The position numbers and the translations under genes were made by a program. A stretch of 41,157 nt of DNA from a virus: IMG/VR virus record IMGVR_UViG_3300027754_000048. One strand, given 5' to 3'. Shown here piece after piece: positions 16,387-18,089 of this stretch. Position 1 is the stretch's first letter. Each line of letters starts with the position of its first letter. The notes under the pieces are model-generated. The model saw only the letters and a list, made by a program, of their open reading frames with translations, had not been told where the DNA came from and made no database searches.

Positions 16387-17268
16387 ATGCAACAAGAAAA
16401 GTATTCTCTTTTCCATCTTGAAGGTGGCCTAGGTAAACATGTGGCCGCAACGGCAGTCGCTGCATGCATCAAAAATAACTATCCAGATAGAAAGCTAATC
16501 GTCGTATGTGCGTATCCAGAAGTATTTTTAAACCTGGAATTTGTAGATCGCGTGTATAGAATCGGATCGACTCCATATTTTTATCAAGATTTTATCAATG
16601 GTAAAGACACTTTGATCTTTAAACACGAACCCTACTTTACAACTGATCACATCCATAAGCAGTTAAATCTCATTGAAAATTGGTGCAAGCTTTACAACTT
16701 AAAGTTTTCTGGAGAAAAACCTAATCTTGCATTTAATTTACGCCAGACTCAATATGGATTTAGAAGATGGAAACGTGATCGCCCAGTTCTCTTGATGCAA
16801 ACTAACGGCGGACCATTGAAGGACCAGCCTTATCCATATTCTTGGACACGAGACATGCCGCGCGGCATTGCTGAAAGTATAGTTGATCAGTTTAGTCACG
16901 ACCATCATATTATACAAATCTGTCGTTCACAAGAACAAGCAATCCCAGGAGCAGAGGCTATTTTTGAACCTCTTTCAAATATGGAACTCATGTCAATGCT
17001 CCTCTTTTCAACTAAACGCGTGTTAATCGATTCGTGTATGCAACACGGTGCAGCGGCACTAGGCCTAGTATCAACTGTTTTGTGGATCGGTACCTCTCCG
17101 CAAATCTTTGGTTATGCACTGCATAATAATATTTCTGCACAGTTACCAGAAACTGTTAAGTTGCCAGACAGTTATTTGTTTGACTATAATTTCCATGGAG
17201 CGTTGCATGAGTGTCCACTCTTTGACAATAACCTATTTGATCCAAAGGAAGTATTAAGCTCGATATAA
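16387..17268 (+). CDS. Glycosyltransferase, GT9 (heptosyltransferase)-like GT-B fold
   Basis: GGLGKHVAATAVAACIKNNYPDRKLIVV and LIDSCMQHGAAALGLVSTVLWIGTSP, compared with GT9 GIGD...LKxxxP and DSGxxHLAAA.G...LFGPT.P. ATG at 16387 preferred. Confidence 0.75.
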   Translation: MQQEKYSLFHLEGGLGKHVAATAVAACIKNNYPDRKLIVVCAYPEVFLNLEFVDRVYRIGSTPYFYQDFINGKDTLIFKHEPYFTTDHIHKQLNLIENWCKLYNLKFSGEKPNLAFNLRQTQYGFRRWKRDRPVLLMQTNGGPLKDQPYPYSWTRDMPRGIAESIVDQFSHDHHIIQICRSQEQAIPGAEAIFEPLSNMELMSMLLFSTKRVLIDSCMQHGAAALGLVSTVLWIGTSPQIFGYALHNNISAQLPETVKLPDSYLFDYNFHGALHECPLFDNNLFDPKEVLSSI

Positions 17269-17270
17269 AA

Positions 17271-18089
17271 ATGGTACAAAAGATATTCTTTCAGTCCTCT
17301 CTACCTAGAGCAGGATCGACTCTTCTGCAAAACATCATGGGTCAAAACCCTGAATTCTACGTCACACCCACTTCGGGAGTCCTGGAGTTAGTGTATGCTG
17401 CAAGAAGTAATTACACTAACTCGCCTGAATTCAAAGCTCAGGATGCTTCCCAAATGAAAGCAGGGTTCACCCAGTTCTGTCACGATGGAGTATTTGGATT
17501 TTTCAACGCAATTACTGATAAGCCTTATGTATTGGACAAAAGCCGAGGTTGGGGAGTCCACTATGGCTTCCTAAATACGTTCTATCCCAATCCAAAAGTT
17601 ATCTGCATGGTGAGAGACCTGCGTGGTATTTTTGCATCAATGGAGAAAAACTTTCGAAAGAACCAGCATAAAGACGCGGGTTTAGTGAATCATGCGAAAA
17701 TGGAAGGAACTACTACTGAGAAAAGAATAGACCTTTGGGCAAATAGCCAACCTGTCGGACTCGCAATTGAGCGTTTATATCAAGTAATTAACGAAGGTAT
17801 TGGAAAAAACATGCTTTTTGTTCGTTATGAAGACCTTGCAAGTCAACCAAAACGAGAAGTCTCCAGGATCTACGAATACTTAGGTCTTCCTTATTTTGAG
17901 CATGATTTCGATAACATAGAACAGATAACTCGAGAAGATGATGAAGTATACGGAATCTATGGAGACCACACGATTCGTAAGAAGTTAGAACCTTTACCTA
18001 ACGACTATAAAGACGTTTTGGGAGCGGCTGCTTGCAGCTGGATTAAAACAAATTACAAGTGGTTCTACGAAGAGTTTAAATATTATTAA
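17271..18089 (+). CDS. PAPS-dependent sulfotransferase family protein
   Basis: 5'-PSB loop SSLPRAGSTLLQNIM, DKSR, 3'-PB MVRDLRGIFAS, FVRYEDL. Confidence 0.9.
   Translation: MVQKIFFQSSLPRAGSTLLQNIMGQNPEFYVTPTSGVLELVYAARSNYTNSPEFKAQDASQMKAGFTQFCHDGVFGFFNAITDKPYVLDKSRGWGVHYGFLNTFYPNPKVICMVRDLRGIFASMEKNFRKNQHKDAGLVNHAKMEGTTTEKRIDLWANSQPVGLAIERLYQVINEGIGKNMLFVRYEDLASQPKREVSRIYEYLGLPYFEHDFDNIEQITREDDEVYGIYGDHTIRKKLEPLPNDYKDVLGAAACSWIKTNYKWFYEEFKYY

Follow-up and report, generated by a model that had tools for sequence, protein, structure and literature searches.

We describe here a pair of adjacent genes, A and B, in a 41,157-nt stretch of DNA from a large uncultured aquatic tailed phage (IMG/VR record IMGVR_UViG_3300027754_000048; this whole 41-kb stretch is hereafter called the window), and argue that the pair belongs to a cassette by which sugar and sulfate are put on the fibre proteins of the phage while these are still in the cytoplasm of the infected cell. 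We would put the probability of this reading at roughly 55%; the acceptor, the donor sugar, the site of sulfation, the order of the steps and the benefit to the phage are what we infer from the genes and their surroundings. The pair is the conserved core of the cassette, which is otherwise variable among phages, and the window carries its minimal, two-gene form:

16387-17268, plus strand: gene A, 293 amino acids (aa), ATG start
17271-18089, plus strand: gene B, 272 aa

Both genes are intact and lie on the plus strand, with the flanking genes on both sides on the minus strand. The TAA stop codon of A is followed by two bases (AA) and then by the ATG of B; because the gap is only 2 nt, B probably shares a transcript with A. 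A longer, TTG-initiated frame of A begins at 16348. The initial annotation of this DNA, which had described an inverted two-gene unit with a 2-nt spacing among fibre genes, proved right down to the exact coordinates of the reading frames.

Conservation of the pair and its linkage to fibre genes

The comparison drew on 54 viral loci with a relative of A, 43 of which include at least 1.5 kb of sequence on both flanks. In 42 of these 43 loci, a relative of B lies no further than 740 bp from A, in the order A-B or B-A, and A adjoins B in 5 of the 5 large phage records. The 385-kb record G001 carries two A-B pairs, whose A proteins share 38% identity, and the pair is also present in a deposited cyanomyovirus record, MH319754 (locus L001). 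The pairing of A with B is far beyond chance. It is retained both in records that carry psbA (G002 and G003) and in records that lack it, with A at 43-57% identity, which fits a target that belongs to the phage itself and does not depend on the host.

The linkage to fibre genes was assessed by counting as fibre-like any open reading frame (ORF) of at least 300 aa within 8 kb in which G, S, T, N and A make up more than 50% of the residues. Such an ORF is present in 38 of the 43 loci, in many cases co-oriented with the pair and at a distance of only 30-350 bp; by comparison, in two near-complete genomes, 16-21% of positions have one within 8 kb and 8-10% have one within 1 kb. In particular, homologues of the beta-roll fibres of the window (see below) are found in the flanks of 22 of the 43 loci, and the records G001, G004 and G005 each have only one or two beta-roll genes, one of which is located 3-6 kb from the pair. 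The linkage is kept over at least six arrangements (fibre-A-B; fibre-B-A; A-GT25-B facing fibres; fibre-enzymes-A-B; fibre-B-x-A-fibre; and the layout of the window) and involves beta-roll, collagen-like and LamG fibres. The initial annotation had named the lack of a genomic association between the pair and fibre genes as an outcome that would speak against it; the association holds across many rearranged phage loci.

Folds and cofactor motifs of the two proteins

Protein A has no match in Pfam (E <=0.01), PHROGs or NCBIfam, and a profile search of PDB sequences with it returned chance matches only (E ~1). The earlier description of A as GT9-like, that is, as akin to glycosyltransferase (GT) family 9, is nonetheless borne out by the fold of an AlphaFold model built from 27 relatives (predicted local distance difference test, pLDDT, 88.5; predicted template-modelling score, pTM, 0.88). 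Foldseek places the GT9 protein 3tov, WaaF (1psw), WaaC (2h1f) and TibC (4rb4) at the top of its ranking for this model, with E-values of 1e-9 to 1e-7, and the VIA structure alignment yields Z-scores of 21.0 for 3tov, 18.7 for WaaF (1psw), 18.3 for TibC (4rap) and 18.2 for WaaC (2h1h), the root-mean-square deviation (rmsd) being 3.5-3.8 A over 240-267 residues. The GT9-fold entries span Z-scores of 17-21 in the VIA comparison, as against 10.8 for the best GT-B enzyme outside GT9. The solved structures nearest to the GT-B fold of A are, therefore, those of GT9.

The sequence retains part of the GT9 signature. Protein A itself stays below the cut-off of the GT9 model PF01075, which is matched at E <=0.01 by 28 of the 124 A-family members (best E 6.5e-9); two fused members just pass the cut-off of 22 bits. 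These weak matches fall on the stretch of the IDSCMQH type, which in A represents the C-terminal nucleotide-sugar motif D-S-x-x-x-H and corresponds to D-S/T-G-x-x-H of GT9; of its residues, D215, S216 and H220 do not vary in A1, and each reaches a conservation of at least 90% among the 124 family members. The GGLGK loop that follows the first strand of A has Lys17 where GT9 enzymes and TibC have G-D. With the VIA offset, by which model residue 5 corresponds to residue 1 of WaaC, Lys17 comes to position 13 of WaaC, the site of what we take to be the catalytic aspartate of GT9 (presumably Asp13 in WaaC and Asp110 in TibC). The catalytic Asp is thus not found in A, and the conservation of Lys17 in the family as a whole is at least 90%. 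Because Lys replaces the catalytic Asp, we regard A, as modelled, as a soluble GT-B enzyme of a GT9-fold sister family rather than as a strict member of GT9. A 379-aa phage protein encoded elsewhere (L056:829-1968, minus strand, corresponding to ~63665-64804 of G005) passes the Pfam GT9 threshold with 43.7 bits and has G-Y-G-K-K in its first loop, which shows that Asp has given way to Lys outside the A family, too.

Protein A does not match TIGR04414, the model of the bacterial autotransporter heptosyltransferases (BAHT; cut-off 200 bits), nor does it have their C-terminal four-Cys cluster: it ends at residue 293, and its only conserved cysteines are C27, C41 and C100. When A was aligned with hhalign to a phage homologue of TibC and to a phage protein that passes Pfam GT9, the probability was below 1%, the profile of A being narrow. 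The family is a large one, with 2434 close relatives in a large protein collection and with 1243 clusters at 50% identity, all without a name. Among the sequences found here, the family occurs in viral and metagenome sequences only, and a scan of ~185,000 prokaryote species genomes with two peptide patterns gave none of its relatives.

Since phage GT-B enzymes are known to glycosylate hydroxymethylcytosine DNA, and since some A-family members are fused to FkbM methyltransferases, it could be imagined that the pair builds a sulfated sugar on hypermodified bases of phage DNA or on a soluble metabolite. We consider this most improbable: no DNA glucosyltransferase is found among the best 50 fold matches of A, it is fibre genes, and not DNA-metabolism genes, that are consistently near the pair, and, to our knowledge, sulfated DNA has never been reported.

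Protein B is readily recognized from its sequence. It matches Sulfotransfer_3 (PF13469) with 76.1 bits (cut-off 27), Sulfotransfer_1 (PF00685) with 53.7 bits (cut-off 22) and phrog_27463. In an alignment of 21 B-family sequences, no variation is seen at L11, P12, R13, G15 and S16 of the LPRAGST stretch or at R115 and S123, and T17 is conserved to at least 90%. We take LPRxGST and R115...S123 to be the 5'-phosphosulfate-binding (5'-PSB) and 3'-phosphate-binding (3'-PB) motifs for 3'-phosphoadenosine 5'-phosphosulfate (PAPS). All of the best 50 structure matches of the B model (pLDDT 90.8) are sulfotransferases. The nearest solved structures are the tyrosylprotein sulfotransferases TPST1/2 (VIA Z 19-20, rmsd 3.7-4.0 A, ~243 residues; specifically, Z 19.8, rmsd 3.8 A and 242 residues for TPST1 5wri), 3.5 Z units above the next class; the CurM sulfotransferase follows with Z 16 and the heparan sulfate 3-O-sulfotransferase with Z 14. 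The earlier assignment of B as a PAPS-type sulfotransferase is, hence, upheld by Pfam, motifs and fold alike, and we place it, on sequence and model, as a PAPS-dependent enzyme of the TPST-like (Sulfotransfer_3) clade.

The proximity of B to the TPSTs raises the possibility of two separate protein modifications, with B sulfating Tyr, Ser, Thr or a hydroxylated residue of the fibre and A glycosylating it independently, so that no sulfated glycan would be formed. The abundance of Tyr in the beta-roll repeats (5.4%, in such contexts as GGY, SGY and NYY) would suit such an activity. The TPST catalytic base, presumably the Glu of the GEE motif (Glu99 in TPST2), is not seen in B: in a phmmer alignment, as distinct from a structural one, GEE of TPST1 falls on the uncharged T32-P33-T34, a stretch in which the B family has no conserved acidic residue. 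By the same kind of comparison, Lys90 of B is aligned with the Lys of the TPST NKD motif. The closest named bacterial family, in turn, is a sugar sulfotransferase, NoeE, although this best NCBIfam match (NF052394; 32.6 bits, E 3.3e-8) is a weak one and far below the cut-off of 500 bits. Furthermore, B almost obligately adjoins a glycosyltransferase, and the A family includes fusions to the hydroxyl-capping FkbM methyltransferase; the adjacency and the fusions suggest that the partner enzyme acts on the product of A. In favour of separate modifications, a 2-oxoglutarate (2OG)-Fe(II) oxygenase of the prolyl 4-hydroxylase (P4H) type is encoded between a LamG fibre and B in MH319754, a layout that matches the predicted hydroxylase-plus-sulfotransferase operons for collagen-like and tail-collar proteins (PMC2938197). 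All in all, we find two unconnected modifications rather improbable. If, as we prefer, A and B both contribute to one decoration of the fibre, we hold the sugar to be around twice as likely a target of B as a side chain (Tyr, Ser or Thr) of the protein that bears it.

Accessory genes, candidate acceptors and the proposed pathway

In the relatives of the pair, further genes for glycan building and for sulfate activation, including the activation of adenosine 5'-phosphosulfate (APS), are found next to A and B. Among these are:

L008:9718-10875, minus strand (G001 18060-19217; also G004 18019-19053): phage TibC/Aah-type enzyme, TIGR04414 277 bits
L001:8900-10585 and L001:6019-6708 (MH319754): NodU/CmcH-type carbamoyltransferase and P4H-type oxygenase, respectively, flanking the pair
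L082:19227-19685, minus strand; L002:7600-8004; L022:10494-10898; L033:10103-10939 (fused to a P-loop kinase): small adenylyltransferase, 134-152 aa
G001 179687-180268, minus strand: APS kinase, beside a small adenylyltransferase

The TibC/Aah-type O-heptosyltransferase is encoded directly after B in G001 and G004, with a GT4 gene and a methyltransferase gene (Methyltransf_24) coming next. The copies in G001 and G004 both pass the 200-bit cut-off of TIGR04414, which the neighbour gene at 1264-2421 of L057 matches with 277.4 bits; the phage TibC homologue matches the TibC structure 4rb4 with E 1e-56, and the LGD motif and the four Cys are kept in the alignment. A diverged TibC copy, which itself comes after a GT8 gene, precedes A in L010. 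The presence of a TibC/Aah enzyme as a neighbour in relatives favours a protein acceptor.

Other accessory genes differ between loci. The closest relatives (75% identity in A) have a GT25 gene between A and B and a small gene of the adenylyltransferase family just upstream; loci of the cyanophage type have GT2-like genes and a Methyltransf_24 gene. Several clusters of the A family are fused to GT25, and there are fusions of A to the FkbM methyltransferase. Fusions of A to B were also looked for, with a negative outcome: B is not matched by the additional halves of P0122 and P0238. In MH319754, the order is GT4, LamG fibre, P4H-type oxygenase, B, A, carbamoyltransferase, a layout that may provide a context for two cyanophage gene families that are usually listed as metabolic.

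The initial annotation had called for a search for APS kinase together with the pair, and the two do co-occur in some relatives. In L033, a P-loop kinase that matches APS_kinase, fused to an adenylyltransferase domain, is encoded after B, and further on, all on one strand, are T4-type neck, tail-sheath-stabiliser and terminase genes. In G001, the second pair is preceded by collagen-like and LamG fibre genes and followed by genes for an adenylyltransferase of 152 aa and for an APS kinase (E 3e-66). As judged by sequence family, the small adenylyltransferase could be a minimal ATP sulfurylase of a phage PAPS pathway or an enzyme that activates the donor sugar. It is the only hint at an ADP-heptose donor, and it could equally be a sulfate adenylyltransferase.

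The proteins of the window that may serve as acceptors are the following:

18473-20371, minus strand: beta-roll fibre, 632 aa (Pfam LbR_Ice_bind, 1.8e-11)
20393-23623, minus strand: collagen-like fibre, 1076 aa, with GPT/GAT/GST triplets (Pfam Collagen, 1e-21; PHROG tail-fibre families)
23647-25962, minus strand: second beta-roll fibre, 771 aa, 21% Ser+Thr, 5.8% Cys (LbR_Ice_bind family), a paralogue of the first
13751-15145, minus strand: beta-helix-like protein, 464 aa (Pfam Beta_helix, 4.7e-5, just under the cut-off)
2-1732, plus strand: partial fibre gene with 13 copies of SGTSGSSG and collagen-type repeats (PHROG tail-fibre families)

The leading candidate would be the first beta-roll fibre, which lies 384 bp from B. 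It consists of ~30 repeats of 15 residues (period 15/30) with the consensus G-x-x-N-T-A-S-G-x-x-S-x-V-G-G and contains 24% Ser+Thr, 5.4% Tyr and 4.3% Cys. Its paralogue likewise has ~30 repeats of 15 residues, is similarly rich in Tyr and Cys, and has homologues beside the pair in relatives. In both, Cys often occupies a fixed position in the repeat (GGYCNTAS), and the median Cys content is 2.6% in fibre-like ORFs near A, in the loci L002-L055, vs 1.0% in other large ORFs; this is compatible with a structural role of Cys and is no proof of S-glycosylation. The beta-helix-like protein, which has a signal-peptide-like N-terminus (MKKLSLLILILLISTFVEAQ), might be an alternative acceptor, by analogy with the autotransporter passenger domains that are heptosylated before export, and the partial fibre with its SGTSGSSG repeats might be a further one. 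The Ser/Thr-rich potential acceptors to which the initial annotation had pointed are, thus, real (13 SGTSGSSG copies, GPT/GAT/GST collagen, and beta-rolls with 24% and 21% Ser+Thr), and its parallel with the Ser-Gly attachment sites of glycosaminoglycans is only an analogy. Two observations on the N-termini of these proteins may be added. The first ~50 residues are near-identical in the first beta-roll fibre (MYGSGIEIAKVAFSSL...) and in the collagen-like fibre ([16 protein letters not shown]...), despite their different architecture, and, as sequence features go, this common N-terminus is probably a virion-attachment module. The adjacent minus-strand genes 13751-15145 (MKKLSLLILILL...) and 15142-15681 (MRPLLLTLMLCV...) both have signal-peptide-like N-termini, so that proteins of the exported type are encoded beside A-B.

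The pathway can be envisaged as follows. Fibre or adhesin proteins would be modified in the cytoplasm of the infected cell, prior to assembly. The donor of protein A would be a nucleotide sugar, perhaps of the ADP-activated heptose type, and the transferred sugar would go either to the 15-residue beta-roll repeats, onto a hydroxyl or possibly a thiol, or to a sugar that had been set by an enzyme of the TibC type; in the latter case, A might extend a first heptose in the way in which WaaF extends the product of WaaC. Protein B would then add sulfate from PAPS made by the host. In its most specific version, the proposal would amount to an undescribed virion chemistry, namely, a sulfated sugar on the fibres of aquatic T4-like phages, attached through an S-glycosidic link to Cys or through Ser/Thr, made by a GT9-fold enzyme with an Asp-to-Lys change and, in some relatives, fed with PAPS by an APS kinase and a tiny adenylyltransferase that acts as a minimal ATP sulfurylase; this full combination appears to us a tentative and somewhat unlikely one.

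Several observations weigh against the decoration of fibres. The solved structures nearest to B are protein-tyrosine, not carbohydrate, sulfotransferases. The Lys17 at the site of the catalytic Asp may mean that the chemistry of A is not heptosyl transfer, or that A is no transferase. No homologue of TibC was found in the window, in which, moreover, the pair is inverted relative to the fibres, and a fibre-like ORF is missing from the surveyed range in 5 of the 43 loci. Relatedness is widespread among the 54 loci, and the fibre regions of T4-like phages gather accessory genes; the linkage counts therefore overstate the number of independent events. Finally, GT9, GT4, GT8 and GT25 are the classic families of the lipopolysaccharide (LPS) core, and the gene set also fits a modification of the host envelope.

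Under the latter alternative, A, B and the accessory glycosyltransferases would act at the cytoplasmic face of the membrane on lipid A-core, lipooligosaccharide (LOS), a glycolipid or a capsule precursor, and the sulfated sugar would alter the cell surface so as to block superinfection or to stop the progeny from sticking to debris. It has in its favour that WaaC and WaaF, LPS heptosyltransferases of the GT9 family, are among the top structural matches of A, that GT4, GT8, GT25 and GT2-like enzymes are those usually involved in building LPS/LOS cores, and that 'LPS gene clusters' of unknown role have been noted in large cyanophages (PMC3037559). Yet A is kept at the above level of identity with and without psbA, though the hosts differ in their surface glycans; the pair is embedded in runs of structural and fibre genes and, in several loci, has the orientation of the fibre, neck and terminase genes there; the neighbour in G001 and G004 is the protein-specific TibC/Aah enzyme; and the two-pattern scan of prokaryote genomes gave no relative of A. 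On balance, modification of the host envelope seems unlikely to us.

With fibre decoration as the preferred reading, the earlier idea of a sulfated glycan on the fibres stands as far as the enzymes and the fibre linkage are concerned; the placing of the sulfate on the sugar did not gain support, the nearest structures of B being TPSTs. The suggestion that this glycan mimics polysaccharides bound by the Sus systems of Bacteroidota fared worse, its sole trace being a sub-threshold SusE match (E 0.0025) in a gene next to the pair in a relative, and nothing found here speaks for a shielding of the particle or for a host from Bacteroidota.

Related systems and the surrounding genes

A close known parallel is provided by TibC and Aah, which modify TibA and AIDA-I (PDB 4rap, 4rb4). 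In these systems, a soluble cytoplasmic enzyme of the GT9 fold is encoded beside a repeat-built beta-solenoid protein that becomes O-glycosylated on Ser before its export. Protein A matches TibC with a Z-score of 18.3, true TibC homologues adjoin the pair in related phages, and A resembles the BAHT enzymes in being encoded beside a repeat-built beta-solenoid candidate acceptor, a likeness of context only. Unlike TibC, A fails the TIGR04414 model and lacks the N-terminal 90 residues, the four-Cys cluster (the iron finger of the PDB titles) and the catalytic Asp. The TibC systems, for their part, have no sulfotransferase, and their acceptors are autotransporters, whereas here they would be phage fibres with 15-residue repeats.

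With the LPS core enzymes WaaC and WaaF, A shares the fold (Z ~18-19) and the C-terminal nucleotide-sugar motif, and GT4, GT8 and GT25 are common to both settings. Through the heptose kinases WaaP and WaaY, sugar transfer in the LPS core is likewise followed by the addition of an anionic group. The differences are that the group is phosphate there and would be sulfate from PAPS here, that the cassette has no lipid A or Kdo genes, that the Asp is replaced, and that the pair sits among virion genes. The Nod-factor enzymes (NodH/NoeE, NodPQ, NodU and NodS) also combine PAPS sulfation and a PAPS supply of their own with carbamoyl and methyl capping, but the NoeE match of B is 32.6 vs 500 bits, there is no chitin-oligomer synthase, and the acceptor here would probably be a protein-linked sugar. 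With TPST1/2 and bacterial RaxST, B has in common the fold, the presumed PAPS-motif residues and Lys90 as the NKD Lys; it differs from TPST by having no acidic residue at GEE, by its cytoplasmic location and by its tight coupling to a glycosyltransferase.

Among phages, glycosylation of virions has been demonstrated by mass spectrometry in mycobacteriophages (Freeman et al. 2023, cited in PMC12619734). According to that citation, phage glycosyltransferases encoded beside structural genes glycosylate virion proteins there, as we propose here from the genes; as described in it, the mycobacteriophage enzymes belong to other families and act on the C-termini of capsid and tail-tube proteins in phages of actinobacterial hosts, with no mention of sulfation. 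For sulfate, Iyer et al. (2010; PMC2938197) predicted operons of a hydroxylase and a sulfotransferase beside genes for collagen-like and tail-collar proteins, with the fibre as the proposed substrate. Those operons resemble the present loci in pairing a sulfotransferase gene, in some cases along with genes for PAPS synthesis, with genes for collagen-like or phage-tail-type fibres. Their central enzymes, however, are 2OG-Fe(II) dioxygenases, of which only one cyanophage relative has an example here, and a GT9-like gene is missing from them; both proposals are predictions. A literature search retrieved no paper on the A-B pair or on phage enzymes of the TibC type, and a modification with both sugar and sulfate is not known from any phage particle.

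Aquatic viromes commonly contain phage sulfotransferases, whose function has been stated to be unclear (PMC10580990, 2023); the role of the 'LPS genes' of large cyanophages has been a question since 2010 (PMC3037559). If fibre decoration is true, host recognition, stickiness and resistance to proteases and grazers in the water would rest on a chemical layer that is unseen by gene-based host prediction, sulfated glycoproteins would join the short list of phage virion modifications, and the GT9-fold family with the Asp-to-Lys change would be a new enzyme class worth characterising.

The immediate borders of the pair are formed by the following features, after which come the three fibre genes at 18473-20371, 20393-23623 and 23647-25962:

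13751-15145, 15142-15681 and 15812-16201, minus strand: upstream neighbours
16202-16386: divergent intergenic region upstream of A
18086-18436, minus strand: small convergent ORF, 116 aa, with a 4-nt overlap between its end and that of B

The intergenic region contains a sigma-70-like sequence, TGGACA-17-TATACT, at 16349-16377 on the plus strand and TATAAATA at 16368-16375 on the minus strand, both of them matches to a consensus only. The region shows no enrichment in promoter-like sites (12 vs 8.7 expected), and the T4 late promoter motif TATAAATA is not enriched in the window either (2 vs 5.9 expected). The small convergent ORF has no family in PHROGs or NCBIfam and a sub-threshold match in Pfam, and an Atlas search yielded nothing of use. 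A homologue stands directly after B in the closest relatives (L002 and L003; tblastn, 40% identity). Between 15142-15681 and 15812-16201, a perfect hairpin with an 11-bp stem and T runs on each side is present at 15764-15789, which looks like a bidirectional terminator, to judge from its sequence.

The window encodes several fibre-like proteins; other recognizable genes in it are:

4882-5760: sigma factor
6183-6902: prohead protease
26331-27758, minus strand: thymidylate synthase, 475 aa
34220-35500: ATP-dependent DNA ligase
37299-38786: endolysin

No close nucleotide relative of the window was found among deposited or cultured phages. Among the deposited phage records, a protein match for A was obtained in Marine virus AG-345-L05 only, the 680-aa protein encoded at 7810-9852 has no match, and the ligase has distant matches only. 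The PHROG match of the thymidylate synthase starts from residue 95 and comes in two stretches, which indicates an N-terminal extension or an insertion. A gene at 3297-3833 on the minus strand encodes a CAP (cysteine-rich secretory protein) domain (Pfam E 7.5e-13), which PHROGs labels 'sporulation protein'.

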